Below the pieces are notes generated by a model. The model saw nothing but the letters and a program-made list of their open reading frames with translations, was not told where the DNA came from and ran no database searches. DNA of 64,000 bases from Candidatus Gorgyraea atricola. Lineage in GTDB: Bacteria > Omnitrophota > Gorgyraeia > Gorgyraeales > Gorgyraeaceae. The DNA is taken from assembly GCA_030765235.1 (NCBI GenBank), contig JAVCCW010000010.1, forward strand, positions 94,907-158,906, in the 5' to 3' direction. The position numbers were made by a program, and so were the translations under genes. Positions 586 to 55,524 of the stretch are shown here, piece by piece (positions within the stretch are counted from its first letter, which is position 1; the number at the start of each line of letters is the position of its first letter).

Positions 586-705
586 AAAAATCCCAATACT
601 ACCAATACTACCAAATAAATCCCAATTTCAAAATCCCAAACATGGTTTTGGATTTGGGATTTTGGATTTATTTGGGATTTGGTAGTATTTGGATTTTGGA
701 TTTTT
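586..705. repeat. Family A imperfect palindromic intergenic repeat (words tcccaaa/taccaa, centre cccaaacatggttttgg)
   Basis: Inverted-repeat arms readable directly. Near-identical copies at 16894-17018 and 18210-18334, half copy at 24265-24345. Confidence 0.9.
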
Positions 706-2720
706 CATCTCACTAGTATCTGTGGCAGTAATGCCAAGTCCGCAATACGTTCTGTGTATAACCTGTTGATCGCCTTCATCATTGCCAGGCGATTAAGTCG
801 CAACGACCTATCTTTATCATTCACCATTACATTGTCAAAAAAATCATGCAATGCCCTGTAAAATGCCTGGGCATATTTCTTGGTCGCCTCTACGTATTCT
901 TCTTTATCAATTAGCGCGCTTATCTTATCTTTCGAATCTAAATATGCCTGCCAAACATCTTGCTCTAATTTTTCCTTGAAAAGCCCTTTATTCACTTCGC
1001 TGATTTTTTCATTCTTTGCACCTTTTAAGATATTGCTCGTACGCTCTACGACCTTTGCTGCTTCTAAAAAATACCTCTCGTTAGCCACAGAACTCAATGC
1101 CTCGATTCTATTAAATATATCAACTATGTCAGAACGCCCTGAGTCCAGTACTGCCCTTTTTAATTCAATGGGCCTTATGTCTCCCATTAAAAACTCCACC
1201 CTATCCTTTATATAATCAGCGACCTTCTCTTTTGAAGTCTTTAATTTGTTACCGTATAGCTGAATTGCTTTTTCTACTAGCTCTACTATTTCAAATCTCA
1301 GAGACTGATCTTTTACAATGCGAATAAGGCCTAGCGCGTTTCTTCTTATACCAAACGGATCAAAACTTCCGCTTACTTCCTTGGTTACTCCTAAAAAACC
1401 AACCACATTATCTATCTTATCGCTGATCGCGAGGATCGCGCCCTGTTTTGTCTTAGGCAAGTCATCTTCCAGGCCCTGAGGAAGATACTGCTCGCCTATG
1501 GCTAGCGCAATATCTTTTTCTTCTTTGTTTCTCAATGCATATTCTCTTCCCATCACACCCTGCAGGCTAGGAAACTCGCCCACCATGTGAGTGACAAGAT
1601 CTACTTTTGAAAGCTCGGCTGATTTTTCTATATTCTTTTTCAAAGAACTGTCTACGTTTAATCTGTCGCAGATAAAAACGCAAAGTACTTTCAGGCGTTC
1701 GATTTTTTCGAACATATTACCTAAATCCTTGTGAAAAATCAAGTCTTTTAATTGAGGGATATTATCCGAGAGGCTTCTTTTTATATCCTCGTCGAAGAAA
1801 AACAGGCTATCCTTTAGTTTTGCCTCTAAGATATTTTCATAATTTCTTCTAACCAGCCTTATGTTCCTGCCGCTGCCGTCTATTACAGCGATAAACCTGT
1901 TTGTGAGTCTATCTTTTTTCACAACAGGAAATATCCTCTGATGTTTTGCCATGCTGGCCCTGAGCACATCTTCTGGCAATGCCAGAAATTTCTTGTCAAA
2001 TTCTCCGCTGAATACCGTGGGGGAATTCACCATAAACGTTATCTCTTCCAGGAGCGCTTCATCAACGCATTGATCTGCCCTGAGTTTCTTTGTCTCGCGC
2101 AGGATCAATCTTTTTATCTCAGTCTTTCTTTTGTCTGAATCAGATAATTTTATTTTCTTTAGGTCTTTCGCTGAGGGGATGTTTCCGAGTCTTATATCTA
2201 AATGCTCTTTGCCGAATAATGCCAAGACTGACTCTATCGGCCTTGCAAAACGCAAACCAGAATCATCCCATCTCATTGTCTTTGGAAAATAGATATTCCT
2301 TATAATGCGCGGGGTTATTTCTTTAAGAATATCTTTTGTATTGCGGGCTTTTTCTTTTTTCTCAACAACTACATATTCGCCTTTTGGGGTCTCTTTGATT
2401 TTCAAATCCTCTATTTTCACACCCTGATTTTTTGCAAAACCAATAGCTTGCTTTGTAGGGTTACCGTTGTCGTCAAAGGCTATTCTTTTAGGTGGGCCTA
2501 GAATTTCCTTGGAGCTTTCCTTCTGGCACACATCCATATCTTTTATATAGCAAATCAATGAGTTCTTTGTACCTAAATTTACTGTGAGGTTATGGTCAAA
2601 AGCTATGCCTAACTTGGTTAGCTCTAAATGAAAATCACTGCATAGACTATCTAAAGCTCCCCTTACATAGCCTGCCGGCAACTCCTCCACATTTATCTCT
2701 AACAAAAAATTCTTCTTCAT
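705..2720 (-). CDS. glyS: glycine--tRNA ligase beta subunit
   Basis: 671 aa; N-terminus MKKNFLLEINVEELPAGYV typical of GlyS; lies directly downstream of glyQ. Confidence 0.85.
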   Translation of the reverse strand: MKKNFLLEINVEELPAGYVRGALDSLCSDFHLELTKLGIAFDHNLTVNLGTKNSLICYIKDMDVCQKESSKEILGPPKRIAFDDNGNPTKQAIGFAKNQGVKIEDLKIKETPKGEYVVVEKKEKARNTKDILKEITPRIIRNIYFPKTMRWDDSGLRFARPIESVLALFGKEHLDIRLGNIPSAKDLKKIKLSDSDKRKTEIKRLILRETKKLRADQCVDEALLEEITFMVNSPTVFSGEFDKKFLALPEDVLRASMAKHQRIFPVVKKDRLTNRFIAVIDGSGRNIRLVRRNYENILEAKLKDSLFFFDEDIKRSLSDNIPQLKDLIFHKDLGNMFEKIERLKVLCVFICDRLNVDSSLKKNIEKSAELSKVDLVTHMVGEFPSLQGVMGREYALRNKEEKDIALAIGEQYLPQGLEDDLPKTKQGAILAISDKIDNVVGFLGVTKEVSGSFDPFGIRRNALGLIRIVKDQSLRFEIVELVEKAIQLYGNKLKTSKEKVADYIKDRVEFLMGDIRPIELKRAVLDSGRSDIVDIFNRIEALSSVANERYFLEAAKVVERTSNILKGAKNEKISEVNKGLFKEKLEQDVWQAYLDSKDKISALIDKEEYVEATKKYAQAFYRALHDFFDNVMVNDKDRSLRLNRLAMMKAINRLYTERIADLALLPQILVR

Positions 2721-3626: not shown

Positions 3627-3643
3627 GAGTCACCTTTATTGCT

Positions 3644-3768
3644 GTGGAGGTTACGAAGGTTTCGGAAGGTTTCGGAATGTTGCGGAAGGTTGTCAAAAAG
3701 TTTGAAATCCATAGCTGTTGTAACCTTTCGTAACCTTCTCTAACATTCCGTAACATTCCGTAACCTCC
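3644..3768. repeat. Family B palindromic repeat (ggaggttacgaaggtt...aaccttcgtaacctcc)
   Basis: Long imperfect inverted repeat of acgaaggtt/tcggaa words; other copies at 22313-22420, 36058-36187, 53203-53272; half copy at 12013-12060. Confidence 0.9.
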
Positions 3769-6182: not shown

Positions 6183-8353
6183 TCTTTCTCGGGTCCATCA
6201 GGATATTCCACGCGCGTGTGAAATATTCCTGTGAGTATATGCATGAAAACTTCTGCGATTCTTTCCAGATTCTTGAGCGTCAGATCGCATTCGTCCAACT
6301 GACCGTCAATAAATTTATTATTTATGATCTTTTTCACCAGGCCTTTTATCCTGGACGGTGTAGGATTATCCAGTGCACGCGATCCTGCCTCAACTGAATC
6401 AGCCAGAAGCACGCATGCTGCTTCCTTTGTCTGTGGTTTTGGTCCAGGATACCTGAAAGACTGTTCTCCTACATCCTCGTCTGTCACCTTTTCCAGTGCC
6501 CTCTTAAAGAAATAAAAAACAAGGCCTGTGCCATGATGCTGCCTGATGATATCAATGATCTTTTTATTGAGCTTGTGTTTCTGTGCCAACTCCACGCCAT
6601 TTTTAACATGGTTGGTGATTATGAGACTGCTCATGGTGGGCGAAAGTTTATCGTGCGCTGAACCCTCGCTGGATTGATTCTCACTAAAATATGATGCCTT
6701 TTCGATCTTGCCTATGTCGTGAAAATATGAACTGACCCTGGCAAGAAGCGGATTAGCGCCTATTGCCTCACAGGCCGCCTCTGCAAGATTTCCAACAACA
6801 AGGCTGTGATGATAAGTGCCTGGCGCCTTCATTACCATCTCTTTTAAAAGCGGATGGTTTAGATCCGCTAACTCGAGAAGGCTTATATCTGTCGTGATCT
6901 TAAAGATGTTTTCAAATACAGGTAGTATGCCTGTCACAATAACCGCAGACATTATGCCATTTGTAAGCCCAAAAAGCGCCTGTGTGATGTATGTATTAAA
7001 ATCCAACCCTCTTACAAGACCCATACCGATAAGATAACTCACGTTCGCAAAACCAACACACAGGCCAGCTGTCATGACCTGTGACCTGCGCCTTACGCCC
7101 TTCATCGCAAATATACCGACCATGCCTCCGACAAGAGAAACGCCTGCGATATCCAGAATATTTCCAGCGATCATGCCAACTAGTATACTTAAAAAACAAG
7201 TAGCTATCATTGCCATGCGGCTGTTTATTAAGATGGCTATAAGCATTGAAGCCACTGCCACAGGCACGAGATTACTTGGCCAGGGAGACATCACTATGAT
7301 CTTTGCCGCTACTAAGATCAGAAAAGACACTACGGAAAGCAAAACCAGCTCTTTATTTGCTGCTATAAAAATAGGTTCGTAAAATTTTACATAGAGCACT
7401 ACGATAAGCATGAAAAGCCCGACCAGTAGCAGTATCCCGAAGAGCCCTCCTATTTTCATTGCCATGGACTCATTCTGCTCTATGCCTTTTAACTTCACTA
7501 TATGATCCTTGCCAATACGCTCACCCTTGTTCAATATCATCTCATTCTTCTTTACCTCTATTGTATTGCGAATAGGGTTTATTTTCTGGGCAAGTTCATC
7601 TTTTTCTGCTGCTGTCTTTTCTTCATCATATATTATATTTGTGCTCAAAATGGCTTTCATAAAATCATTGGCAGCTGAACGCTCTTTTCTGCCTCTTATG
7701 CCTGAAGAAAAATCCTCCATGTTTTCCTTTAGATCTCCCAGCGTAAAAAAATCTTCTACCCATGCCGTGCTTTCAGTGTCCTCGATTTTATCTAGCACCT
7801 TTATTCTTTTTATCTCGTTCTCCACGAGCATAGAACGCTCTGAAGCAGAGATTATGCCTTTTAACATAAGGCGCTCTATTGCATCCTTTACTGAGTCGTA
7901 AAACATCTCGTGATCCTTTAGTTCCAGGATGCTAGTTGTAAGTGCCTCTGAGATATTATAATCAGCTGAAACTGCTGCGACCTTTGTCTTTTTTTCTTCA
8001 TCCGCCAAATCAGGTTCTGTCTTTAAAAGCGAGACTGAGTCCACGATAGCCTTGGCCTTATTCAAGACATTCTGCTGCACTCCAGCGTCAAAGATATAAA
8101 TGGGCAATACTGAATCCGCGGCCTTTTTTCTTGCGATATCCGTAGCCCTGGTATTTACCTCTCCTTTTATATTAAAATCATATGGCGCGTAAATAGAGCT
8201 CAGCGCTATGTCGCCCTCGCGAAACTCTGCCTTAAAAAGTCCCCTGTCCCACTGTATGATCGTCACCATTAAAAGACACGTTAATACCGCGATGATGGTA
8301 TGGGATAATGCATGTGAATTACTTTTCTTCTTACTATTAAGGATTTTTTTCAT
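6179..8353 (-). CDS. 7TM-receptor HD-domain phosphohydrolase (PgpH-like)
   Basis: 724 aa; central block of 7 TM helices followed by HD/HDIG domain (HDIGK); conserved phoH/pgpH-ybeY-dgkA neighbourhood. Confidence 0.75.
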   Translation of the reverse strand: MKKILNSKKKSNSHALSHTIIAVLTCLLMVTIIQWDRGLFKAEFREGDIALSSIYAPYDFNIKGEVNTRATDIARKKAADSVLPIYIFDAGVQQNVLNKAKAIVDSVSLLKTEPDLADEEKKTKVAAVSADYNISEALTTSILELKDHEMFYDSVKDAIERLMLKGIISASERSMLVENEIKRIKVLDKIEDTESTAWVEDFFTLGDLKENMEDFSSGIRGRKERSAANDFMKAILSTNIIYDEEKTAAEKDELAQKINPIRNTIEVKKNEMILNKGERIGKDHIVKLKGIEQNESMAMKIGGLFGILLLVGLFMLIVVLYVKFYEPIFIAANKELVLLSVVSFLILVAAKIIVMSPWPSNLVPVAVASMLIAILINSRMAMIATCFLSILVGMIAGNILDIAGVSLVGGMVGIFAMKGVRRRSQVMTAGLCVGFANVSYLIGMGLVRGLDFNTYITQALFGLTNGIMSAVIVTGILPVFENIFKITTDISLLELADLNHPLLKEMVMKAPGTYHHSLVVGNLAEAACEAIGANPLLARVSSYFHDIGKIEKASYFSENQSSEGSAHDKLSPTMSSLIITNHVKNGVELAQKHKLNKKIIDIIRQHHGTGLVFYFFKRALEKVTDEDVGEQSFRYPGPKPQTKEAACVLLADSVEAGSRALDNPTPSRIKGLVKKIINNKFIDGQLDECDLTLKNLERIAEVFMHILTGIFHTRVEYPDGPEKE

Positions 8354-11575: not shown

Positions 11576-11587
11576 ATAAATATCCAA

Positions 11588-11635
11588 GGTCCAGCCTCGG
11601 CTTTTTAGTAACAAAAAGCCGAGGCTGGACCTTAG
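11588..11635. terminator. Family G hairpin (aaggtccagcctcggcttttt / aaaaagccgaggctggacctt) downstream of HU gene
   Basis: Perfect stem read from sequence; T-runs on both sides; candidate bidirectional terminator. Confidence 0.55.
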
Positions 11636-11643
11636 TTTTTTAG

Positions 11644-11916: not shown

Positions 11917-12012
11917 ACAAAACCTCCTTATGTTATCGTATCTAGTTTAATTACAAGGGGTAGTGTAACAGTTTCCAATTATGATGTCAAGAATGTTTTA
12001 TTAATATAACTT

Positions 12013-12060
12013 GTGGAGGTTACGAAGGTTACGGAAGGTTTCGCATTTGTACGGCTAACC
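12013..12060. repeat. Family B half copy (tgtggaggttacgaaggttacggaaggtttcg)
   Basis: One arm only. Confidence 0.7.
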
Positions 12061-16893: not shown

Positions 16894-17018
16894 AAAATCC
16901 CAAATCCCAATAATACCAATACTACCAAATAAATCCCAATTTCAAAATCCCAAACATGTGTTGGGGTTTGGGATTTTGGATTTATTTGGGATTTGGTAGT
17001 ATTTGGATTTGGGATTTA
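16894..17018. repeat. Family A palindromic repeat copy
   Basis: Near-identical to 586-705 and 18210-18334. Confidence 0.9.
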
Positions 17019-17022
17019 TATT

Positions 17023-18183
17023 TCATTTCCCCATCCCAATCCCCTGCGCTCTTTGCAGGAGTTTTCCTTCTGTCTTAATGGATGGGGCTATTATTATTTC
17101 GGTCAATTGCATTTCTTTTATATCTCTCGCGCCGACATTTCCCATCGAGGTCATTAGCGCGCCTACAAGATTTTGTGAACCATCATCGAGCTTTGCGGGG
17201 CCAAGTAAGATCTCTTCTAATGTCCCGGTCGTGCCCACGCGGATCCGCGTACCTCTGGGCAGGTTTGCATGCGGTGTGGCCATGCCCCAATGATATCCTT
17301 TTCCTGGCGCCTCTTGCGCCCTGGCAAACGCGGAGCCGACCATCACAGCATCTGCGCCGCTGGCAAAGGCCTTGCAGGTATCTCCGCCTGAATCCATGCC
17401 GCCGTCTGTAATAATCGGTATATATTTTCCTGTCTTCTTATGATAAAAATCTCGCGCTGCTGATGTATCTGAAGTAGCTGTGACCTGCGGTACACCTATG
17501 CCAAGGACGCCTCTTGTGGTGCACGCCGCGCCAGGCCCGATGCCGACCAGGATCGCGCTAGCCCCAGCCTCCATCAGCTCAAGCGCAACAGAATACGTAA
17601 CGCAGTTGCCCAATATAACAGGGATCTTCATCGATTTTATGAACTTGGCAAGATCAACTACTTTATATTCCTTAGACATATGATGCACACTTATCACTGT
17701 AGACTGGACTACAAATATGTCTGCGCCTGCATCCTGCGCAAGCTTACCAAAACGCTCTGCAGTCTGCGGAATCGTACTTACAGCCGCGGTCGCGTTCTTT
17801 TTCTTTATTTCCTTTATCCTCTTTGTAATGAGCTTTTCTTTTATAGGTTTAACATAAAGGGATTGCACGAGCTTTGTGGCCTCTTGCGGGCTTGCCTTTG
17901 CTATTTTTTTAAGTATCTCGTCAGGATTCTCATAACGGGTCTGCACGCCGTCCAGGTTTAAAACAGCCACGCCGCCGAGCTTACTCATCTCTACAGCAAA
18001 CTTCACATCCACCACGCCATCCATTGCAGCAGCAAGTATGGGTATCCTGTATTTCTTGCCTGCCAGCTCCCAACTTGTATCTACCTCGTTAGGATTTATC
18101 GTAACAGAACCAGGTACAAGAGCTATCTCATCAAATCCATAACACCTTCGCGCCTTTCTCCCTCTTCCAACCCACATACCCAT
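17023..18183 (-). CDS. IMP dehydrogenase-family protein without CBS pair (GuaB3-like)
   Basis: TIM-barrel IMPDH motifs (FDEIALVPG, ILAAAMDGV, GIGPGAACTTR). Start set to MGMWVGRG, which is preceded by AAAGGAGG. Confidence 0.65.
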   Translation of the reverse strand: MGMWVGRGRKARRCYGFDEIALVPGSVTINPNEVDTSWELAGKKYRIPILAAAMDGVVDVKFAVEMSKLGGVAVLNLDGVQTRYENPDEILKKIAKASPQEATKLVQSLYVKPIKEKLITKRIKEIKKKNATAAVSTIPQTAERFGKLAQDAGADIFVVQSTVISVHHMSKEYKVVDLAKFIKSMKIPVILGNCVTYSVALELMEAGASAILVGIGPGAACTTRGVLGIGVPQVTATSDTSAARDFYHKKTGKYIPIITDGGMDSGGDTCKAFASGADAVMVGSAFARAQEAPGKGYHWGMATPHANLPRGTRIRVGTTGTLEEILLGPAKLDDGSQNLVGALMTSMGNVGARDIKEMQLTEIIIAPSIKTEGKLLQRAQGIGMGK

Positions 18184-18209
18184 CCTAGTACCTCCTTTTG
18201 AAATACGCA

Positions 18210-18334
18210 AAAATCCCAAATCCCAATAATACCAATACTACCAAATAAATCCCAATTTCAAAATCCCAAACATGTGTTGGGATTTGGGATTTTGGATTTA
18301 TTTGGGATTTGGTAGTATTTGGATTTTGGATTTT
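18210..18334. repeat. Family A palindromic repeat copy
   Basis: Near-identical to 16894-17018. Confidence 0.9.
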
Positions 18335-18394
18335 CTACCATAAATATCTATTACCTTTTAGTTCTGTGTATAATACAGTAAACCTTGTAAAAAG

Positions 18395-20014
18395 TCAAGT
18401 CTTCGGTATCAGCAATACGTCTAACAGCAGCGCCTTAAATGCTATATTCTTCCAGAAATGCTTCCCTTGATCCCTCCCTAAAACAACATCCTTGACCCCA
18501 TGAAAAAATCCCAGGTTCTGCTGCGAATGTTCCTTAGAGATATTATGCGCGGAAAAACGGGCTTCTAAAAAACCTTCTGTTATATCATGCATGGGTTTTG
18601 GATTATCTGATAAAATAGCCCCTACAGATTCAAGGAACTCCCTTGCCGCAATATAGTCAAATTTAGAAGCGCCATATATCTTAAAACCCCTGCATAGAAT
18701 GCCATAGATCTCCTTTATAAATTCCTTTGGATCCTTGATCGCTAATTCCTGCAAACGTTTGCTTCTCATAAACATGTACACAGTAAAAAATAAAAGCCCT
18801 AAAACCACAAGCCACAAAACGCTAATAGATGAGTAATATAAAGGGCCTTTTTTCTTTATTGGTATTAGAGGGGGCAATATCTCAATGTACAGATCATTGC
18901 TAAATGTCCCGAGATAAGACGCAGATACATGCACGCTTCCTTCTTCTTTTGGCTTGAGATTCCCTTGATTATTTATTGATACCTCTGTGCTGCCGCTGGT
19001 CACCCAGTCAACAAGCTTTGTTACTGTAAGAGTAGAGTCATCGCTCATGGTCAATTCCGCTTCAAGTCTAACTTGCTTACCAAGGGGGACCTTATCCGCA
19101 TTTGAGTATATTGTAAGAGCCTTTATCTCAAAAATATCTATTTCCTTATTAAATCCTTCTGCGCGAAAACGCTGCTCGATCGCCTTTTTGGCCTTTCCTT
19201 CTGTCTCTTGTATTAATTCCTCTTGTCTTATCCTTACGCCCTGAGTTTCCCTCTTTTTCTTTATGGCATCTACGAGCTGTTCTTTTTTCCTTTTTTTATT
19301 GTCTTTTAGCTCTTTCGGCGCCTGATGCAATAACTTTAAAAGCGGGATCTTCTCGGGGATCCCTAAAAGCGTAGAGGGCAGTCCCTTTAAAGATAGATTC
19401 TCAAAACGCGGGACAAAGGGATAGACTAGAGACGCGACTATTAAAACAAAAGAAAACATCATTGCAGCCACTTTTATTTGCTGCCATAAACTCATTATCT
19501 TTTCCTGATCCCCCACTATAAGAGAGCCCTTGTTCTTTTTTTCGCATACCAGACTCAAACGCATCGCAAAGATAAAGATAAACAAAAAAACCGCAAGCAT
19601 GACCATATAAACTGGTTCCTGTTCCAGGGCAAGAGAAATGGATGAGATCAAAAGACACACTGCTATAAATTGCAACATAGCATAACTTTTTTCTTCTTTC
19701 AGGCCAAAACTTTGAAAAAGCGTAAGCCATGCCAGGGCTATAGAAAAACCCGTCAGAAGATTATCAAATGTCAAGGCCTTGTCAAAAAGGCCTCCCAATG
19801 TCACGACCACTGCTGCAAGAGACAGCATCCCTATAAAGGTATCTATATGCTGGGGTCTGGATTTTCTGATCCGCCAGCTTACAAGAAAACCTGCGATCGT
19901 ACCAGGTATCAGGAGCGCAGCGACAAAAGGATTTATGATCCCCTGGATGCTAAAAAGTCCTATCAGGACTATCCCCAGATTTGAAAAGTGAAAATATAAC
20001 GCGTCTCTGTCCAC
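18395..20014 (-). CDS. TgpA-like membrane protein (DUF3488 N-terminal TM region, Big_2-like domain, C-terminal DUF4129)
   Basis: Multi-TM N-terminus; C-terminal YIAAREFLESVG..EARFSAH resembles DUF4129; third gene of the MoxR-DUF58-TgpA operon. Confidence 0.55.
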   Translation of the reverse strand: MDRDALYFHFSNLGIVLIGLFSIQGIINPFVAALLIPGTIAGFLVSWRIRKSRPQHIDTFIGMLSLAAVVVTLGGLFDKALTFDNLLTGFSIALAWLTLFQSFGLKEEKSYAMLQFIAVCLLISSISLALEQEPVYMVMLAVFLFIFIFAMRLSLVCEKKNKGSLIVGDQEKIMSLWQQIKVAAMMFSFVLIVASLVYPFVPRFENLSLKGLPSTLLGIPEKIPLLKLLHQAPKELKDNKKRKKEQLVDAIKKKRETQGVRIRQEELIQETEGKAKKAIEQRFRAEGFNKEIDIFEIKALTIYSNADKVPLGKQVRLEAELTMSDDSTLTVTKLVDWVTSGSTEVSINNQGNLKPKEEGSVHVSASYLGTFSNDLYIEILPPLIPIKKKGPLYYSSISVLWLVVLGLLFFTVYMFMRSKRLQELAIKDPKEFIKEIYGILCRGFKIYGASKFDYIAAREFLESVGAILSDNPKPMHDITEGFLEARFSAHNISKEHSQQNLGFFHGVKDVVLGRDQGKHFWKNIAFKALLLDVLLIPKT

Positions 20015-20040
20015 GATCCTTATCCTTAATAACTCGTTGG

Positions 20041-20106
20041 TGTAAAGTGCAAAGTGTCAAGTGTCAGGGCCCTTTTGACACCTGACACCTAAAACCTGAC
20101 ACCAGC
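20041..20106. repeat. Family C palindromic repeat (gtgtcaagtgtcagg...cctgacacctgacacc)
   Basis: Other copies at 41376-41446, 45502-45531/45907-45944, 49389-49421; variant at 42903-42968. Confidence 0.85.
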
Positions 20107-20127
20107 CTTGTATTTATACAAAGCAAG

Positions 20128-22295: not shown

Positions 22296-22312
22296 GTGTT
22301 CCTCCTGTTTTT

Positions 22313-22420
22313 AGCGAAGGTTTCGTAAGGTTGTGTGAGGTTTCGTTAGGTTGCGTAAGGTTACATTATTGCAACTTCACGAAACATTACGAAACTTTAC
22401 GCAACTTCACGCAACCTCCA
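22313..22420. repeat. Family B palindromic repeat copy
   Basis: gcgaaggtttcgtaaggtt...cgcaacttcacgcaacctcc. Confidence 0.85.
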
Positions 22421-22592: not shown

Positions 22593-24345
<1,753 letters not shown>

Positions 24346-24358
24346 TTCTAGTTATATT

Positions 24359-24646
24359 TTATTTAAGTATAGCCAGGATGTCTTCTTCCCTTAAGATAAT
24401 GTATTCCTGGTCATCGTGAGTTATTTCATTGCCAGCGTATTTCCCAAAAAGCACCTTGTCGCCCTTTTTTACCTCTAAAGGCTCTACCTTGCCGCTCTCC
24501 AATACCTTGCCCTTGCCAGCAGCAACTACTTCACCCTTCTGCGGCTTTTCCTTTGCAGTCTCTGGCAGCAAAATGCCACCCTTTGTCTTCTCCTCAGCTT
24601 CGAGACGTTTTACCAAAACCCTGTCTCCTAATGGTTGTATTGCCAT
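24359..24646 (-). CDS. groS: co-chaperonin GroES
   Basis: 95 aa [14 protein letters not shown]... Confidence 0.97.
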
Positions 24647-27462: not shown

Positions 27463-27700
27463 AAAAAACTCTTAATCCATTATAGTGGATTAAGAGTTGC
27501 ACCCTGTTTTCTTCACCCTTTATGACTGCCCTCAGCAGCTCCCTGTTATAGGGAAAAATATATTGTAAGGTTTTCTGACTTAAGGCCGTCTACTCTCTGC
27601 GCCTTCTCGTCCGCCCAAAGCGAACAATGGCTTATTGCAGATTTCGTAACCTATTACAGCAGCGGGGCTGCGCTGGACTCCCACCAGCTTCCCTTAAACA
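27463..27700 (-). promoter_or_regulatory. cobalamin (B12) riboswitch with terminator expression platform
   Basis: Minus strand AAGGGAAGCTGGTGGGAGTCCAGCGCAGCCCCGCTGCTGTAATAGG matches the AAGGGAA..GGTG..A.TCC..GC.G.CCCGC..CTGTAA core; GAAGGC further on. Terminator aactcttaatccactataatggattaagagtttttt at 27463-27499. Candidate promoter TTGACT-17-TATAAA at about 27740-27770. Confidence 0.75.
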
Positions 27701-27771
27701 ACATAATATGAAATATTCAATTGTAAATATTTTATACCCTAATTACTAAAACAAGTCAACAAAAAAATACC

Positions 27772-27806
27772 TTTGCCGAAAAAGCCGAGGTCCAGCCTCG
27801 GCTTTT
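27772..27806 (-). terminator. rho-independent terminator after the ABC ATPase gene (family G hairpin + T-run)
   Basis: aaaaagccgaggctggacctcggcttttt on the minus strand. Confidence 0.65.
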
Positions 27807-28579
27807 TACCGCCTCACCAAAAACACATGCGGCCGGGATGTCAGGGGATTTTCTTTGACAATGACCCGGGTCTTGTAGACCTCTTCTATTGTCTTGTAAT
27901 CAAGGACCTCGCTTGGTGTGCCTTGTTTTTTTATCCGGCCCTCGCTCAATAATATTAATCTATCGCAATAAAGCGAAGCTAAGTTCAGATCATGCAATAT
28001 CGCAACTACTGTCAATTTTGATTCCTTGTTCAGCTTCTTTAATAGTGAAAATGTCTCTATCTGATGGCTTATATCAAGGTGTGTGGTTGGCTCGTCTAAA
28101 AACAAAACCCTTGGCTTTTGCGCAAGTGCCTTTGCAATGACAACCCTCTGACGCTCGCCACCACTCAGCTCATCTATAAATCTATCCCTCAGGTGTATAG
28201 CATCCACTTCTTCCAGTGCCTTAAATGCGATCCTCAGATCATCCTGAGATTCAAATCCTAATCTGCTCAAATAAGGTATACGGCCCATCAAGACTACATC
28301 CAGCACTTTAAATGGGAACATAAACAGCGCGTCCTGCGGCACTACTGCTATCAGCTTTGCTATCTCTTTTAAAGGTGTATCCTTTAGCCTTTTCTTCTGC
28401 AAATATATCTCGCCCTTAAAAGGCTTTAGCACCTTTGTAGCAGTACGCAAAAGCGTTGATTTGCCTGAGCCGTTCGGGCCGATTATGCCAATAAAATCCC
28501 CAGGATCGACACTAAAGGTCACATCCTTTAGGACCTCAGTACTCCCGTAACCACTCGCGACATCTAAAAAGTAAAGCAT
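27806..28579 (-). CDS. iron-siderophore/B12-type ABC transporter ATP-binding protein (BtuD/FecE-like)
   Basis: Walker A GPNGSGKST, signature LSGGERQR. Confidence 0.9.
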   Translation of the reverse strand: MLYFLDVASGYGSTEVLKDVTFSVDPGDFIGIIGPNGSGKSTLLRTATKVLKPFKGEIYLQKKRLKDTPLKEIAKLIAVVPQDALFMFPFKVLDVVLMGRIPYLSRLGFESQDDLRIAFKALEEVDAIHLRDRFIDELSGGERQRVVIAKALAQKPRVLFLDEPTTHLDISHQIETFSLLKKLNKESKLTVVAILHDLNLASLYCDRLILLSEGRIKKQGTPSEVLDYKTIEEVYKTRVIVKENPLTSRPHVFLVRR

Positions 28580-30821: not shown

Positions 30822-30957
30822 TTAGAAACTCTAAACACTAAACTCTAAATCCTAAACAAACTCAAAACACAAAACTCAAATGCCAAAACTGCAGTTTTGA
30901 GTTTTGGATTTGGGGTTTTGGATTTGTTTAGAGTTTAGGGTTTCGAATTTAGAGTTT
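30822..30957. repeat. Family F palindromic repeat (aaactctaaa.../...gttttggatttggggttttgg, centre ctgcag)
   Basis: Imperfect inverted repeat; right arm shares words with family A. Confidence 0.8.
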
Positions 30958-30964
30958 ATATTTA

Positions 30965-36026: not shown

Positions 36027-36057
36027 ACTTCCTCCCCTTATTTTTTATTACTTACTT

Positions 36058-36187
36058 ACGTGGAGGTTACGTAAAGTTACGGAAGGTTTCGGAATGTTGC
36101 GTAAGGTTGTATTAAGAGCGTTGGAATCCATCGCTCTTGTAACCTTCGGTAACCTTCTCTAACATTCCGTAACCTTCGTAACCTCCA
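36058..36187. repeat. Family B palindromic repeat copy
   Basis: tggaggttacgtaaagttacggaagg...ccttcgtaacctcca. Confidence 0.9.
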
Positions 36188-41350: not shown

Positions 41351-41375
41351 GTTATCCTATTTCAATAGCGCCTCT

Positions 41376-41446
41376 AGTGTCAGGTTTTAGGTGTCAAGTG
41401 TCAAGGAGCTAAAATCCCTGACACCTTTCACCTGACACTTGACACC
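41376..41446. repeat. Family C palindromic repeat copy
   Basis: agtgtcaggttttaggtgtcaagtgtcaagg...cctgacacttgacacc. Confidence 0.85.
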
Positions 41447-42902: not shown

Positions 42903-42968
42903 GTGTAATGTGTAAAGTGTAAGGTGTAATGTAATTGGGGTAGCTTGGTACATTACACATTACACAAC
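42903..42968. repeat. Family C variant palindrome (gtgtaatgtgtaaagtgtaagg...cattacacattacac)
   Basis: Imperfect inverted repeat between recA and htrA. Confidence 0.75.
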
Positions 42969-44253: not shown

Positions 44254-45507
44254 TTGCATATAATAAGACCTATGGAAATATCCTCGCATGTAATATGCAT
44301 TGGCAATGAAATTATGCTTGGCCATATTAATAACACAAATGCCCAGCATATTTCAGAGAAACTCTCCTCTATTGGCATAAAGACTGCAAAGCATCTGTCC
44401 ATTCCTGACGTTCCAAAGGTTATTATTAATTCAATAAAAAATAGTCTAGCCGATGCTAATATCGTTATAGTTACAGGTGGTCTTGGTCCTACTGTGGATG
44501 ACCTGACGCTTGACTGCATCGGAAAGGCACTGGATAGAAAACTCATCTTTAAAGACAGGGTTGCAAACCATATAAGGCAGCATTTTAAAAATCGTAAGTT
44601 AAAGATGCCAAAAAATAACCTGCGCCAGGCACTTATACCTGAAGGGGCAACCCCAATACTAAACAATATAGGCAGCGCCCCAGGCCTTATAATCCAGACA
44701 AAAGGAAAAGTCCTTATTGCATTACCAGGTGTGCCTTTTGAAATGCATGCCATGATAAAAGATACTGTGCTGGGCTTTCTTAAAAAGAGATTCTCTCCAG
44801 GCAGGCTAATAAAATCCCGCGTAATAAAAATAACAGGGCTTCCAGAGTCAAAGGTGAATGAAAAGATCGAGGACATATTGAAGCTGGGTGGCAATGTCCA
44901 GATGGGTATCTACCCTCACCCCGAAGAGATCACAGTAAAGATAACTGTGACTGACAAAAAGGCTGACGCTACAATAAAAAAGATCGAGAGAAAGATAAAA
45001 TCACGGCTGGGAAACTACATATTCGGCTATGATGAAGAGAAATTAGAAGAAGTTGTTGGCAAGCTGCTCTTAAAAAAGAAAAAAACCTTAGCAGTCGCAG
45101 AATCCTGCACAGCCGGACTTTTGGCGAGTAGAATCACAGACGTTTCTGGAAGTTCAAGGTATTTCAAGATGGGTGTAGTTACTTACAGTAATCAAGCTAA
45201 GAATAAACTTCTATATGTGCCTAAAGATACGATAAAACAACACGGCGCTGTCTCCAAACAAGTAGCAAGCGCAATGGCCAAAAACATGCGGCTATTAGCT
45301 GACGCAAGCATAGGAATCGGTATAAGCGGCATTGCAGGTCCAACCGGCGGCACCAAGAAAAAACCAGTAGGCCTAGTCTACATCGCGCTCTCAACAAAGA
45401 AAAAGACCATTTGCAAAGAATTCCGCTTCCTGGGCCAGCGAAATATCATAAAGTTTAAAGCCACTCAAGCAGCCCTTAACCTGGTGAGGCTTCATGGGCT
45501 TGTGTAA
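44254..45507 (+). CDS. cinA: competence/damage-inducible protein CinA (MoCF-binding + PncC deamidase domains)
   Basis: 417 aa; N-terminal VICIGNEIMLGHINNTNAQ..VIVTGGLGPTVDD. Confidence 0.9.
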   Translation: MHIIRPMEISSHVICIGNEIMLGHINNTNAQHISEKLSSIGIKTAKHLSIPDVPKVIINSIKNSLADANIVIVTGGLGPTVDDLTLDCIGKALDRKLIFKDRVANHIRQHFKNRKLKMPKNNLRQALIPEGATPILNNIGSAPGLIIQTKGKVLIALPGVPFEMHAMIKDTVLGFLKKRFSPGRLIKSRVIKITGLPESKVNEKIEDILKLGGNVQMGIYPHPEEITVKITVTDKKADATIKKIERKIKSRLGNYIFGYDEEKLEEVVGKLLLKKKKTLAVAESCTAGLLASRITDVSGSSRYFKMGVVTYSNQAKNKLLYVPKDTIKQHGAVSKQVASAMAKNMRLLADASIGIGISGIAGPTGGTKKKPVGLVYIALSTKKKTICKEFRFLGQRNIIKFKATQAALNLVRLHGLV

Positions 45508-45538
45508 AGTGTCAAGTGTCAGGTGTCAAGGAGGATAA

Positions 45539-45908
45539 AGTGAGAAATTACAGGTTTGATTTCGAGAAATTAGATGTGTATGAGAAAACGTTAGATTTTG
45601 CAAATAAGGTTTTTAATATTACCAAGAAATTTGATAGAGAAATTCAATATTCACTTGGAGACCAATTTCGTAGAGCCTCTCTATCTATATGTAATAATAT
45701 CGCTGAGGGCAGCGGTAGACCCAGTCAAAACGCAAAAAGACAATTTTACGGCTACGCCTTAGATTCAGCCAGAGAATGTATACCAATGATAACGTTAAGC
45801 CAAATGCAGAATCAAATTACTAAACAAGATGAAGAAGCATTAAGAGACGAATGTATAAGTATCTGTAATATGACTGGCAAGCTAAAAATGTCAACAAAGC
45901 ATCCCTGA
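45539..45908 (+). CDS. four-helix-bundle protein (23S-rRNA-intervening-sequence protein family)
   Basis: ..YRFDFEKLDVYEKTLDF..SICNNIAEGSGR.. pattern. Start placed at GTG 45539 after AAGGAGG (ORF track starts at an upstream GTG inside the repeat). Gene bracketed by inverted family C copies. Confidence 0.7.
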
Positions 45909-45944
45909 CGCATTGACACTTAACACCTGACACCTGACACTAAC

Positions 45945-46502
45945 ATGCAAACTATCCGAGCATTTGTTGCAGTTGAAATCGACCAGCCAAATAAACAAAA
46001 GCTTTCCCAAGTCATCTCTACTCTCAAGCAAGCAAACGCAGACGTAAAATGGGTCAATAAAATCCAGATGCACCTGACACTAAAGTTTCTGGGAAATATT
46101 GAAGAAAATCGCATCAAAGAAATCTCAGACACACTTAAGTCTATTGCAGATAACTTTAGCGCCTTCAACATCCACCTCTCTAAAATCGGCGCATTCCCAA
46201 ACATGCATAAACCAAGAGTCATCTGGCTTGGAATTGACAAGGGCGCACAAGACTTAAAAAACCTAGCTTCTCAGCTCGAAAAACTCGGCCCCAAAGAAGA
46301 AAAGCGTGAGTATAAAGCTCATCTCACGCTAGGCAGGGTCAAATCCTTAAAAAACATCTCTCAACTAACAAAACTTATAAACGAAACCCCCTTTCAATCC
46401 CAAGGCAACATCCCCATCACCAAACTAATCCTCTTCCAAAGCACCCTCACGCCTAAAGGTGCAATCTACTCACCCCTGACAACATTAGCTTTAAAACAAT
46501 AA
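45945..46502 (+). CDS. thpR: RNA 2',3'-cyclic phosphodiesterase (2H family, ThpR/LigT)
   Basis: Two H-x-T-x motifs (HLTLKFLG, HLTLGRV). Confidence 0.85.
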   Translation: MQTIRAFVAVEIDQPNKQKLSQVISTLKQANADVKWVNKIQMHLTLKFLGNIEENRIKEISDTLKSIADNFSAFNIHLSKIGAFPNMHKPRVIWLGIDKGAQDLKNLASQLEKLGPKEEKREYKAHLTLGRVKSLKNISQLTKLINETPFQSQGNIPITKLILFQSTLTPKGAIYSPLTTLALKQ

Positions 46503-49354: not shown

Positions 49355-49388
49355 AAAAATAGGGACGCTCTCCCGCCCCTCAAAATAA

Positions 49389-49421
49389 CCTGACACTTTA
49401 AGTCATACTTAAAGTGTCAGG
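49389..49421. repeat. Family C short palindrome (cctgacactttaagtcatacttaaagtgtcagg)
   Basis: Perfect 13-bp stems. Confidence 0.8.
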
Positions 49422-50150
49422 TTAAGGTTGCCTAATGCCGTCTTTTGTGATGATTAGGGTCTTTTTCTCTCCTTTTTTACCAGGGGTGCCGAGGTTTTTT
49501 CCGTTGAAGGTCAGGGTTACGCCACCAGCATTGCCCAGCTCCAGATCTATCTGCTTTTTTGCTTCCCAACTATCAGAAGCGCCCTTCTTTAATATGCCTC
49601 TAAACAAGAGCTCTTTGCCGCTGGTGACCTGGACCCACGTGTTGTAACGCGCTGCAAGTTCGACCTTAAAACTCTCTGCTACCGCCGCAACCCCGGAGGT
49701 TGCCGTGCTCGCAACCTCCGGGGTTGCGACAACGGCTTGCCCCTTATGTTTAGTGAAAAGATTCCGTATAAACCTTCCCACCTGCACAAAGCCAAAGGCA
49801 AGCAAATACACGCTGAAAATAGTCACAAGCCCGAGTCCGATCTGGCGCTTGTGTTTTAAGAACCAGTCACTTTTGGACTTTTCAGGTTTTAAGGCTAACT
49901 GAGATCCGGGCTTTTTTTCTCCACTTGACAGAAATTCTTTTACTATTCTTTCTTCAAGCGCCCCCAGGAACTGCGAATAGGATTTAATAAAGCCTCTTGC
50001 GTAAAAAGGGTCCGCTGTCTTTAAGATGCTATCTTCTTCTATTGTAGAGATTATTTTCTTAGGTATGCGCGTTCTTTCTGAGACATCTTCTATGGAGAGC
50101 TGCCTTGTTTCGCGGATCTTCTTGAGTGTTTTTCCAAGTGATTCAGGCAT
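49422..50150 (-). CDS. rodZ: RodZ-like cytoskeleton protein (HTH + TM + C-terminal DUF4115)
   Basis: N-terminal XRE HTH LKKIRETRQLSIEDVSERTRIP; single TM; C-terminal domain. Contains GC-rich palindrome at 49687-49727. Confidence 0.7.
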   Translation of the reverse strand: MPESLGKTLKKIRETRQLSIEDVSERTRIPKKIISTIEEDSILKTADPFYARGFIKSYSQFLGALEERIVKEFLSSGEKKPGSQLALKPEKSKSDWFLKHKRQIGLGLVTIFSVYLLAFGFVQVGRFIRNLFTKHKGQAVVATPEVASTATSGVAAVAESFKVELAARYNTWVQVTSGKELLFRGILKKGASDSWEAKKQIDLELGNAGGVTLTFNGKNLGTPGKKGEKKTLIITKDGIRQP

Positions 50151-50151
50151 A

Positions 50152-50236
50152 ATCGTTTAGCCCGTTAGCCCGTTGCCCGTTAGCCCGTTGACCCATTAAC
50201 GGGCAAACGGGCTAAACGGGCAACGGGCTAAACGGA
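50152..50236. repeat. Family D palindromic repeat (cccgttagcccgttgcccgtt.../...aacgggcaacgggctaaacgg)
   Basis: Half copy at 52413-52452. Confidence 0.85.
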
Positions 50237-52411
50237 TTCGGAAGATTCTTCTTCCTTAATCTTGTATTCAGCTATCAGGATCTCTCTTGGCTTACTGCCT
50301 CTAAATGGGCCTACTATGCTTTCCTCTTCCATCGCGTCTATTAATCGCGCAGCCCTGGTGTAGCCCAGCCTGAGCCTGCGCTGCAGCATTGAAACAGAGG
50401 CCTGGCCTGTCTCAAGCACCATCTTTACTGCTTCGTCGAAAAACTCGTCCTTTTTAAAACCGCCTCGCCCAGACATGCTTTTTTTCTGCTGTTCAAGTAT
50501 TGCATCATCATAGATAGGATCTCTTTGTTCCTTTACTGAATTAACGACTTTTTCTATTTCAGCGTCTGTCAGGAGCGTACCTTGCGCGCGTACGGGCTTT
50601 GCGTTGCCAGGCTCTAAAAACAGCATATCGCCCTTGCCCAATAACTTATCCGCGCCATTCATATCTAAAACAGTCCTTGAATCCACTTTCGACGCCACTT
50701 TGAATGAGATCCTTGCTGGAAAATTCGCTTTTATTACACCTGTTACAACATCCACGGACGGCCGCTGCGTCGCGAGTATTATATGTATGCCCACTGCCCT
50801 TGAAAGCTGCGCGAGCCTCGTGATCGCATTCTCAACATCCTGCTGCGCTACTATCATAAGGTCTGCCAGCTCATCTATGATCACTACAAGATAAGGCATC
50901 TTTTCGCTGGATTTCTGGTTAAAGGCGTCTATGTTTCTCGCTACAGCCTTTGCAAGCTTCTTATATCTCACTTCCATCTCACTCACGACCCATTCAAGAA
51001 CGCCTGATGCCTTTTTTGAATCTGTAACCACAGGGCACAGAAGATGCGGCAGGCCATTATAGATAGCCAGCTCCACCATCTTTGGGTCCACCATTATGAA
51101 TTTCAATTCATCAGGCGTTGCATTATATATCATGCTCATTATCAAAGAATTCACGCACACAGTCTTGCCAGAGCCAGTAGTACCCGCGATCAAAAGATGC
51201 GGCATGTCGCCAAGATCTGCCACTACGCTCCTCCCAGCAATATCTTTTCCAAGCGCTATGGCAAGCTTTGAAGAGCCTGCCTGTTTCTGATATTCGCGAG
51301 ATTCAAGGATCTCTCTTAAGCCCACAAGGGATGTACTTTGATTCGGGACCTCTATGCCCACTGCTGATTTGCCCGGTATAGGGGCCACGATCCTGACTGT
51401 AGTCGCCTTCATAGTAAGCGCAATGTCATCACTTAAGGCTGTGATCTTATTCACCTTTACGCCAGGCGCTGGCTGCAGCTCGTACCTGGTAATAACAGGT
51501 CCCTTGTTTATCTCTACCACCTTTGCATCTATGCCAAAATCCTGCAAGGTATCCTCTAATACCCTGGCACTTCCTTCTAAATCCTCGCCCTTAATCTTCT
51601 CTGGCTCAGATGAAGGCATATTTAATAATTCCAAAGAAGGAAGCTTGTAGTCTCCGACTATCCTTGGTGTAAGTTTAACTGGTTTTTTAGGGGCAGGTTT
51701 TGGTTGAGCGAATATCTTAGGTTTTGGCAATACGATCCTCGGCGCAACTGGCCTCTCTACCTTTTTCTCTTCCTTGTCCCTTGTCCCTTGTCCCTTGTCC
51801 CTTGTCCCCAAGTTAACCGCCGGTCTCAACTTAGGCCTATCCTTAACCCTGACCCTCTTCTTGCTCGCCATCCCCGATATCAATTTCCATGCGCGGCCAA
51901 ATAAAAATGAAAAAATAGGTATAATCAAAAACTCTGTAGCAACCATGAGCGACAGGATAGCCAATGCAAGGGTTACTATGTATCCGCCGATCCCGCCAAA
52001 GTATCCAAGAATCTTGCTCGAAACAAAAAAACCAATAAGCCCGCCCCTCTCGACCGAAAGAACAGAATCTCCTGCGGCTGTAAGACTGAAGAACGCGCTG
52101 GCTGAGCTAAAAAGCAGCCCCAATCCTAAAAACCTGAACAAAGGTTTTTGTTCTAATCTTTCAGCGAGAATACCAATACCCCACGTGAAACACAAGAATG
52201 GAATAAGAAAACCCGCATAGCCCACTACCTTAAACACAAGCCACGCAAGATACGCGCCCACTATGCCAATATAATTTCTAACATGCAGATTCGGGGAGGA
52301 TGTTTCAAAGGAAATATCGTAAGGAGAGTAAGAAACCATTGCCGCCAGTAAAATCACTGCCAGCGCGAATAAGCTAAGCGAGATCAGTAAATCTTTCTTA
52401 TCTCTTGTCAT
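50228..52411 (-). CDS. ftsK: DNA translocase FtsK
   Basis: 727 aa; N-terminal TM helices, linker, motor domain with Walker A GTTGSGKT. Linker contains (cttgtcc)x4 heptamer tract at 51775-51805. Confidence 0.95.
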   Translation of the reverse strand: MTRDKKDLLISLSLFALAVILLAAMVSYSPYDISFETSSPNLHVRNYIGIVGAYLAWLVFKVVGYAGFLIPFLCFTWGIGILAERLEQKPLFRFLGLGLLFSSASAFFSLTAAGDSVLSVERGGLIGFFVSSKILGYFGGIGGYIVTLALAILSLMVATEFLIIPIFSFLFGRAWKLISGMASKKRVRVKDRPKLRPAVNLGTRDKGQGTRDKEEKKVERPVAPRIVLPKPKIFAQPKPAPKKPVKLTPRIVGDYKLPSLELLNMPSSEPEKIKGEDLEGSARVLEDTLQDFGIDAKVVEINKGPVITRYELQPAPGVKVNKITALSDDIALTMKATTVRIVAPIPGKSAVGIEVPNQSTSLVGLREILESREYQKQAGSSKLAIALGKDIAGRSVVADLGDMPHLLIAGTTGSGKTVCVNSLIMSMIYNATPDELKFIMVDPKMVELAIYNGLPHLLCPVVTDSKKASGVLEWVVSEMEVRYKKLAKAVARNIDAFNQKSSEKMPYLVVIIDELADLMIVAQQDVENAITRLAQLSRAVGIHIILATQRPSVDVVTGVIKANFPARISFKVASKVDSRTVLDMNGADKLLGKGDMLFLEPGNAKPVRAQGTLLTDAEIEKVVNSVKEQRDPIYDDAILEQQKKSMSGRGGFKKDEFFDEAVKMVLETGQASVSMLQRRLRLGYTRAARLIDAMEEESIVGPFRGSKPREILIAEYKIKEEESSESV

Positions 52412-52412
52412 T

Positions 52413-52452
52413 TTCCCGTTTCCCGTTAGCCCGTTGCCCGTTTAGCCCGTTA
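52413..52452. repeat. Family D half copy
   Basis: cccgtttcccgttagcccgttgcccgtttagcccgttac. Confidence 0.75.
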
Positions 52453-53190: not shown

Positions 53191-53202
53191 ACTTTACAGC
53201 AA

Positions 53203-53272
53203 GAGGTTACGAAGGTTATGGAAGGTTATGTAACGTTCCATAACATTACGTAACATTCCATAACCTCCACGT
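53203..53272. repeat. Family B palindromic repeat copy (short)
   Basis: aagaggttacgaaggttatggaagg...cattccataacctcc. Confidence 0.85.
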
Positions 53273-53282
53273 ATTAAAACAC

Positions 53283-55358: not shown

Positions 55359-55381
55359 TGAAGACTCCCTTTCTTAGTTGT

Positions 55382-55450
55382 AGCTTTCAGCCCTCAACTC
55401 TCAGCTCTCAGCCTTAAAAGCTGAAAGCTGACAGCTGATCGCTGAAAGCT
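55382..55450. repeat. Family E palindromic repeat (agctttcagccctcaactctcagc.../...gctgacagctgatcgctgaaagct)
   Basis: Imperfect inverted repeat between pnp and rpsO. Confidence 0.8.
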
Positions 55451-55524
55451 ATCGTTATAATAAAAGCGGATCTGCCGACCCTAATTACCTGCTTAGCGAC
55501 CCAGGTCGTTAAATCCGCCCTTCA

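Follow-up and report, generated by a model that had tools for sequence, protein, structure and literature searches.

Family A palindromes of Candidatus Gorgyraea atricola as the probable gene-less form of a hairpin-bracketed PF05635 cassette of the rRNA intervening-sequence type

The DNA studied here, called the window throughout, is a stretch of 64,000 nt on contig JAVCCW010000010.1 of Candidatus Gorgyraea atricola, an Omnitrophota species represented by a metagenome-assembled genome (MAG) from Ace Lake. The window genes are ordinary housekeeping genes and lie almost all on the minus strand. The palindromes between them were listed by an inverted-repeat search, which showed that nearly every intergenic gap of 60 nt or more holds a palindrome built of 7-10-nt words, and that these words belong to several unrelated families. 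One of them, family A, is the subject of this work. A repeat search of the window returned it as a single family of 124 nt, at 580-703, 16894-17017, 18210-18333 and 24266-24389. With 16894-17017 as the reference, identity was 89% for 580-703, 98% for 18210-18333 and 64% for 24266-24389, which is a half copy. An earlier sequence-only reading of the same DNA had described near-identical palindromic repeats of about 120 nt at these places together with the half copy, and this was confirmed by the repeat search, by folding and by the raw sequence, in which the tcccaaa/taccaa words and the cccaaacatg(g/t) centre of the family A copies can be seen. The copies reach about 5 nt further at the high-coordinate side than first described, up to a conserved ATGAW/WTCAT terminus. 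The 17-mer AAATCCCAAATAAATCC occurred three times in the window with no more than two mismatches, against 0.04 occurrences expected from shuffles.

All four copies are on the minus strand between co-directional minus-strand genes, which bears out the placement given in the sequence-only reading. Copy A1 (585-708) is a full solo palindrome between the stop codon of glyS (TGA, 705-707) and ppdK (ATG at about 553), and the glyS TGA overlaps the element's own ATG as ATGA. Copy A2 (16894-17018), also full, lies between the stop codon of guaB3 (17023-17025), a GuaB3-type gene resembling inosine-5'-monophosphate dehydrogenase, and the ATG of dnaE (16887), 5 nt from the former and 6 nt before the latter. 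Copy A3 (18206-18341) is a full palindrome upstream of the same guaB3 gene, in its 5' untranslated region (5'UTR) between a conserved promoter and the ribosome-binding site (RBS) and ATG (18186), and its end is 24 nt from this ATG. Copy A4 (24262-24346) is the half copy and occupies the groES-groEL spacer. The GuaB3 protein of the window is 100% identical to one that is annotated as Ca. Gorgyraea atricola. The Rfam search found no rRNA gene in the window, and all copies are between or upstream of protein-coding genes.

Each full copy folds as a single long hairpin of about 55 bp. The energies of A1, A2 and A3 were -46.6, -54.7 and -49.8 kcal/mol (z -6.7, -8.0 and -6.2), and none of 200 shuffles was as stable, while the half copy (24266-24345) gave no hairpin fold (z +0.8). 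Direct reading of the sequence showed that one arm lacks any G and the other lacks any C. The stems are AU/GU-rich, and in each full copy the hairpin has CCC/GGG at its base, beyond which both strands continue with AUUUU(U). The ATGAW motif is conserved at both ends, immediately beyond the AAATCC words, and is strongest at the end that is 5' in the sense of the open reading frame (ORF) carried by the longer relatives described below. In the flanks of six loci from outside the window (L019, L090, L108, L122, L131 and L143) an extra outer inverted repeat (TTAACTTAT ... ATTAAGTTAA) was observed outside the ATGAW ends, which suggests a longer subfamily or nesting in another palindrome. A diverged sister palindrome with CTCTAAA/ACTCAAA words (30823-30960, minus strand), between a btuR-like gene and an Sm_multidrug_ex gene, gave weak matches to the family A profile.

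The distribution of the family was determined with an exact 20-mer of the element, which retrieved 35 stretches from the GTDB species-representative genomes. The whole palindrome was present in 33 of them. These came from 16 MAGs, of which one bears the label Planctomycetia and the remaining 15 Omnitrophota or Omnitrophica; the two stretches without it were chance matches in Bacteroidota. Metagenomes contained the same 20-mer in 99 stretches, viral contigs in none, and BLAST of the element against phage and plasmid collections gave no match. A profile made from 21 copies recovered 123 unique copies in the DNA fetched, of which 72 were full length; the arms were about 87% identical across species, and the centre was free in length and sequence. 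The Ace Lake metagenomes added at least six family A loci outside the window. Family A is specific to Omnitrophota, bar the one MAG labelled Planctomycetia, and restriction of the copies to the window, which the sequence-only reading would have counted against its own proposal, is excluded by these 16 MAGs and 99 metagenome stretches from several assemblers. The window itself is part of a contig from a MAG, and the repeat is a place where short contigs frequently end or change partner, as would be expected if the repeats were assembly artefacts such as fold-back chimeras or collapsed repeats. However, identical copies in identical contexts were present in independent MEGAHIT, SPAdes and JGI assemblies, the flanking housekeeping genes are intact and syntenic, and the same architecture occurs in finished genomes of cultured cyanobacteria (see below), so that the chance of an artefact, which the sequence-only reading had also raised, is negligible.

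Comparison with relatives showed that the copies are polymorphic insertions. The order groES-groEL-moxR-DUF58-tgpA-guaB3-dnaE is kept in relatives whose GuaB3 proteins are 97%, 91% and 90% identical to that of the window, and family A was absent from them at all three sites compared. The groES-groEL spacer measures 17-18 nt in the relatives and 121 nt in the window, the guaB3-dnaE spacer 3-15 nt and 135 nt, and the guaB3 leader, short in the relatives, contains A3 in the window. The sigma-70-type promoter upstream of A3 (18370-18398, minus strand; TTGACT-17-TATTAT) is conserved in all these relatives, which places A3 in the guaB3 5'UTR and implies that it is transcribed as part of the guaB3 leader. 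Because the relatives keep the gene order without the element, the copies are read as recent insertions into operon spacers and a 5'UTR and not as conserved terminators. The closest relative (L040, with the 97% identical GuaB3) carries other palindromes at two of the three sites; these small palindromes, made of CACAAG/CTTGTG words and of ACTTACGC/GCGTAAGT, lie at 7162-7240 and 5731-6000 of L040 in spacers that hold family A in the window, and indicate that distinct families turn over quickly at the same sites.

The sequence-only reading had suggested that the repeats may act as terminators. The very stable hairpin with its CCC/GGG base and AUUUU(U) on both strands, and the location between co-directional genes, would fit intrinsic, possibly bidirectional terminators or 3'-end stabilisers of mRNA selected by the host. 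However, A3 is downstream of a conserved promoter, in a leader, and A2 and A4 each separate two genes whose distance is 3-18 nt in relatives without a copy at these sites. To judge from the relatives, A2, A3 and A4 would thus lie within transcription units. Downstream of A2 and A4 are dnaE and groEL, respectively, housekeeping genes that are generally taken to be essential. A Rho-independent terminator has a short GC-rich stem of 5-14 bp, a small loop and directly after it a U-tract, at the end of a transcription unit, unlike the AU/GU-rich stems of about 55 bp in family A, and a consensus terminator scan flagged no family A copy although it flagged classical GC-rich palindromes elsewhere in the window. 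A terminator role is therefore quite improbable. An outward promoter candidate (TTGGGA-18-TATTAT with TG) was found in the 3' arm of A2 and A3 and is missing from A1; it matches at only 9 of 12 positions in AT-rich sequence and is regarded as no more than a possible promoter.

The copies are also oriented with respect to their hosts. Among co-directional contexts, 54 copies were in sense and 14 in antisense (p ~1e-6, with orthologous sites not being independent). The median distance from the host stop codon to the element was 11 nt, and in many cases the ATG of the element lay 0-10 nt past the stop. This position together with the sense orientation suggests that the cassette borrows host transcription and is translated by coupling. 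A TGA beside the element was considered as the host stop codon, but this assignment was usually wrong, the true stops being mostly TAA, 5-16 nt upstream.

The evidence for the origin of family A came from longer copies. At L103 (Ace Lake), L134 and L001 the profile matched the two arms separately, about 350 nt apart, and the insert between them encodes a protein of about 115 aa on the strand equal to the sense of the genes flanking most copies. This protein belongs to PF05635/TIGR02436, "four helix bundle protein", a family that takes its name from the ORF carried by 23S rRNA intervening sequences (S23p) and related to the Avd proteins of diversity-generating retroelements (DGRs) (PMC10053308). 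It matched the pentameric structure 2RLD with E = 1.7e-17, and the L103 protein (P0121) was 100% identical to a protein annotated as Ca. Gorgyraea atricola, the species of the window. No PF05635 protein matched a PADLOC defence model. In total, seven ORF-bearing loci with family A arms were found, namely L103, L134, L001, L016 (with an in-frame stop), L144, L149 and L150. Their arms pair with -42 to -59 kcal/mol (z -4.4 to -7.6). The PF05635 ORF is absent from all four copies of the window.

These cassettes, taken in the sense of the flanking genes, begin with an ATG and a G-free arm of about 60 nt made of AAATCCC/AATACTACC words; the PF05635 ORF and its stop codon follow, and then a C-free arm complementary to the first. 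In the annotation of L149 and L150 the ORF begins with the ATG that lies outermost in the 5' arm. Translation through the arm in this frame gives MENPNDKYYQIPSKSQLPNPK... and leads directly into the four-helix-bundle domain, and the sequence beyond the stop forms a stem with the 5' arm (-50.9 and -42.0 kcal/mol, respectively). Three AAATCCC words make 21 nt and are read KSQIPNP, and the 5' arm often encodes an N-terminal tail such as MKNPKSKYYQIPSKSQIPNPK. An arm-encoded tail was present in about 45 of the 120 best homologues, many of which have no methionine at the start of the domain. The N-terminal extension in the full-length relatives thus appears to be genuine coding sequence. The sequence-only reading had held that ORF prediction runs through the repeats and produces false N-terminal extensions. 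This is right for the solo copies, where 17023-18219 (guaB3) and 22593-24281 (groEL) carry such artefacts, but it does not extend to the full-length relatives, and the ORF 679-861 given as an example is instead a spurious ORF on the plus strand.

Next to the cassettes, the solo copies look like remnants that have themselves multiplied. They retain both arms and the ATG, and the ORF is missing. A relic mini-ORF reads MKNPKSKYYQIPNKSKIPNPKPCLGF in A1 (628-708, minus strand) and MVENPKSKYYQIPNKSKIPNPNTCLGF in A3. A2 and A3 are 98% identical and have their centre in common; CCAAAACCATGTTTGGG is found in A1 and A4 as well as at the Ace Lake locus L110, and other Ace Lake loci have near-identical centres. 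The same junction at several loci is not expected from independent deletions of the ORF, and shows that the solo form itself propagates. The intact arm of A4 carries the same diagnostic variants as the ORF-bearing L103, and A4 ends in the same TTTTCCAT; it looks like a derivative that lost one arm by deletion between repeated TTTTGGATTT words.

A gene-less form that propagates, with terminal inverted repeats, small size, many copies and presence/absence polymorphism, is also what would be seen if family A were a classical miniature inverted-repeat transposable element (MITE), or a repetitive extragenic palindrome or bacterial interspersed mosaic element (REP/BIME), mobilised in trans by a DDE or a Y1 transposase of the REP-associated type (RAYT), with PF05635 as unrelated cargo. 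Like MITEs, family A is short, non-coding and multi-copy with terminal inverted repeats; like REP/BIME, it is made up of palindromes that lie outside genes in many copies, with co-directional neighbours, and that may influence mRNA. A REP unit measures 20-40 nt, has a conserved GTAG head and owes its mobility to a Y1 RAYT gene with REPs on either side. The unit of family A is about 125 nt, with AAATCCC words and ATGAW termini and without a GTAG head. No transposase was enriched among the 139 ORFs neighbouring the copies, and neither the window nor the commonest neighbour families included a Y1_Tnp/RAYT gene. Whereas the parent of a MITE would encode a transposase, PF05635 and no transposase was present in 7 of 7 longer relatives with family A arms, and no target-site duplication of the kind left by a transposase was found (see below). 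Mobilisation by such enzymes is accordingly given a low probability, and the likeness to REP/BIME proposed in the sequence-only reading holds in the loose sense of dispersed, structured intergenic palindromes but not in unit size, head or a nearby RAYT.

The same architecture was present in a sister family of the window, family C. Its full-length cassette (45497-45945, plus strand), between cinA and ligT, consists of an arm of GTGTCAA words, an RBS, a PF05635/TIGR02436 ORF (45540-45908) and the complementary arm. Solo palindromes of GTGTCAA words are at 20040-20107, 41373-41442 and 49386-49424, and the family also occurs at 42903-42932. As the same words form solos and the arms around PF05635, this is a case within the window of full and solo forms of one family. 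In other lineages, a Margulisiibacteriota PF05635 homologue is bracketed by arms of AACATCC/AACCTCA words, and in Nostoc punctiforme PCC 73102, Anabaena cylindrica PCC 7122 and Nostoc TCL26-01 PF05635 genes are bracketed by inverted GGTCGGA or AAAAGTA arrays. These three cyanobacterial genomes are finished and come from cultured hosts. Complementary flanks were a feature of each of the 12 PF05635 loci that were examined, with z between -2.5 and -10.8 and at -4.4 or lower in 11 of them. In the control, the flanks of 56 window genes gave a median z of +0.15, and the only outliers were the PF05635 gene and ftsK. The latter, a housekeeping gene of 2.2 kb, is bracketed like a cassette by complementary flanks, palindromes of CCCGTTAG words at 50154-50241 and 52415-52451 (duplex z -7.8). 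On two cyanobacterial plasmids, of Anabaena cylindrica PCC 7122 (L152, 492-839) and Nostoc sp. TCL26-01 (L153, 492-848), the bracketed PF05635 gene was found between cas2 and cas1, on the strand opposite to both.

Since the same arms surround PF05635 genes, in one case in the same species, family A is read as the gene-less form of a cassette of the intervening-sequence (IVS) type. On balance, we consider it probable that family A consists of MITE-like solo copies, without the ORF, of a gene cassette that is bracketed by hairpin arms and is of the kind known from 23S rRNA IVSs. The copies, which sit mostly in sense a few nucleotides past host stop codons or in 5'UTRs, would be co-transcribed with host operons. 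The stem of about 55 bp would be a substrate of RNase III, as in rRNA IVSs, and instead of ending transcription a copy would serve as a hairpin for processing or insulation whose polar effects are mild. The ORF of a full copy would be translated by coupling to the upstream host gene, and spread would require the PF05635 protein or some host factor.

Several observations weigh against this interpretation. To our knowledge, no catalytic activity has been assigned to PF05635, so movement may depend on something other than this protein; neither an rnc gene nor a reverse transcriptase or transposase turned up in the window. The flanks of 57 full copies showed no consistent direct repeat that could be taken as a target-site duplication, the exact ends being uncertain. 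Within family A a double change was seen in only 1 of 29 pairs, the arms being 87% identical across species, so that compensatory change lends the structure no independent support. The better RNA fold, by about 3 kcal/mol, was usually that of the antisense strand, whatever the orientation of the genes. The ORF was present in about 3% of the sampled copies, solos exceeding ORF-bearing copies by about 30 to 1, and unrelated short GC-rich hairpins were nested in the family A copies of L015 (about 1882-1990), L024 (about 2812-2950) and L029 (about 1290-1450), which shows that the palindromes are themselves insertion targets. Selection at the mRNA level had been considered as a source of strand asymmetry in folding and found no support, as it is the antisense-type strand that folds better.

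The excess of solos and the nested hairpins, as well as the place of classical IVSs in the loops of rRNA helices 25 and 45, could also be understood if the palindromes were primary, either selfish or host hairpins, and the PF05635 ORF a separate cassette inserting secondarily into hairpin loops. However, the start codon is at the outer end of the 5' arm, and in many homologues this arm is an in-frame N-terminal tail. The arms also differ with the PF05635 lineage (family A, family C, the AACATCC words of Margulisiibacteriota and the GGTCGGA arrays of Nostoc), as would be the case for a co-evolving unit, and were present at every one of the 12 PF05635 loci examined. Secondary insertion is thus unlikely, and a cassette in which arms and gene belong together remains the interpretation that we prefer.

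We compared this cassette with known systems. The 23S rRNA IVS of Coxiella and Leptospira has been described as "selfish", with terminal inverted repeats that form a stem and the S23p ORF in the loop; tandem heptamers in variable number lie just upstream of the ORF, RNase III excises the IVS, and classical IVSs occupy the loops of helices 25 and 45 (PMC4990558). IVSs with an S23p ORF have been reported in Leptospira, Coxiella burnetii, Xanthomonas and Brucella (Ralph & McClelland 1993, as cited in PMC4990558). The likeness to the Omnitrophota cassettes comprises the long stem from terminal inverted repeats around an ORF of about 115-125 aa for a PF05635/TIGR02436 four-helix bundle, heptamer repeats of variable copy number by the start codon, the existence of ORF-less hairpin versions, an ORF in sense with the host transcript and without a good RBS of its own, and a selfish character. 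The differences are that the Omnitrophota copies occupy spacers and leaders of protein-coding operons instead of helices 25 and 45, that their 5' arm encodes the start codon and an N-terminal tail, and that gene-less copies number dozens or more. Excision by RNase III is known for the IVS, whereas for family A the stem length of about 55 bp makes it a candidate substrate. Family A shares the structural features of an IVS but, lying outside rRNA, is not an IVS in the strict sense.

The 127-bp enterobacterial repetitive intergenic consensus or intergenic repeat units (ERIC/IRU) of Enterobacteriaceae and Vibrio and the Correia elements of Neisseria are likewise imperfect palindromes, 100-150 bp long, that are scattered over intergenic regions which are transcribed; they are conserved in sequence across species, present or absent at orthologous sites and able to form mRNA hairpins. 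Correia elements are substrates of RNase III. However, their sequences are unrelated to family A, neither ERIC nor Correia has a link to PF05635 or heptamer words, and the TA target duplication and the site for integration host factor (IHF) of Correia elements were not seen in family A. Intergenic heptamer arrays, often in convergent pairs, are GGGAATC in Xanthomonas and GGGGAYT, of the short tandemly repeated repetitive (STRR) type, in Nostoc/Anabaena (PMC4692102). These words are very near GGGATTT/AAATCCC, and the inverted pairs could form a stem-loop. The arrays were described there as simple-sequence repeats or G-quadruplex formers, whereas family A is a defined unit of about 125 nt with a fixed word order conserved across species; the passages searched draw no link to S23p genes, and the terms 'four helix', 'S23' and 'intervening' are absent from the paper. 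The Avd protein of DGRs (bAvd, PDB 4DWL) is PF05635-like (PMC10053308), and the cassette protein belongs to the same pentameric four-helix-bundle family, but no reverse transcriptase, template repeat or variable repeat adjoined the copies examined. In an integron cassette array, imperfect palindromes (attC sites, for example Vibrio cholerae repeats, VCR) separate mobile cassettes that lack promoters, beside an intI gene. The copies differ from this, as they are flanked by syntenic housekeeping genes (glyS, dnaE, groESL) conserved in repeat-free relatives, and no integrase was found in the window or near copies. Rfam, at gathering and at permissive thresholds, returned only generic long-hairpin matches to plant miRNA precursors (30-37 bits, against thresholds of 90-200). 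The literature searched, which did not cover subscription journals, contained no description of palindromic repeats of Omnitrophota or of PF05635 cassettes outside rRNA.

A wider interpretation is tentative and, in our estimate, has perhaps a modest chance of being right. S23p/PF05635 genes in inverted heptamer arrays might form a selfish class that spans phyla and exploits the transcription and translation of its hosts by entering just past stop codons, of which family A and other word-palindromes would be non-autonomous progeny, rRNA IVSs the special case resident in rRNA, and the heptamer pairs of cyanobacteria and Xanthomonas the traces. An Avd-like protein would then propagate the hairpin, possibly by way of an RNA that RNase III cuts out and a reverse transcriptase copies. 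The kinship with Avd, a cofactor of reverse transcriptase, invites this idea of an RNA intermediate, and a role in retro-mobility is speculation.

Other palindromes of the window were recorded as well. A second family with words of about 10 nt (AGGTTACG / GGTTTCGGAA) occupies intergenic gaps at 3643-3768, 12012-12054, 22298-22418, 36057-36187 and 53199-53273; its architecture is that of family A, its sequence is unrelated and its arm polarity is opposite, with the G-rich arm first. A GC-rich terminator-like palindrome (AAAAAGCCGAGGTCCAGCCTCGGCTTTTT) at three gene ends (2735-2782, 11577-11642 and 27779-27808) is of the classical bidirectional terminator type, unlike family A. The most stable fold of the window, -77.8 kcal/mol in a 140-nt frame, was that of a palindrome of GCTTTCA/GCTCTCA words, which was recorded together with a separate GC-rich long hairpin within or after a GT2 ORF (55381-55451 and 55993-56094); neither matched an Rfam family. 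A perfect palindrome with 26-bp arms (TACCTCGGTAACTTCGTAAGTTACCC) at 57439-57493 is in frame in a Wzy_C O-antigen ligase ORF (56764-57945, plus strand), to which it adds about 18 residues, and is reminiscent of the in-gene Rickettsia palindromic elements. Apart from the palindromes, a cobalamin riboswitch (27548-27743, minus strand; 87 bits) was found upstream of a TonB-dependent receptor gene, near genes for a B12-type ABC transporter and a corrinoid adenosyltransferase.

Family A of Omnitrophota is best explained as adding hairpin cassettes outside rRNA to the known IVS kind, and it gives a testable link to old puzzles, its absence from the literature searched being no proof of novelty. The nature and movement of rRNA intervening sequences and S23p proteins could be tested in one system, which includes cultured, transformable hosts such as Nostoc punctiforme. 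Two further puzzles would become testable in it, the abundance of Avd-like four-helix-bundle genes outside DGRs and the identity of the dispersed heptamer repeats of cyanobacteria and xanthomonads. For Omnitrophota, the repeats fragment assemblies and give false or ambiguous gene starts. Since they put hairpins of about 55 bp into operons, those of dnaE and groESL among them, an effect on mRNA processing is likely in this poorly understood phylum.

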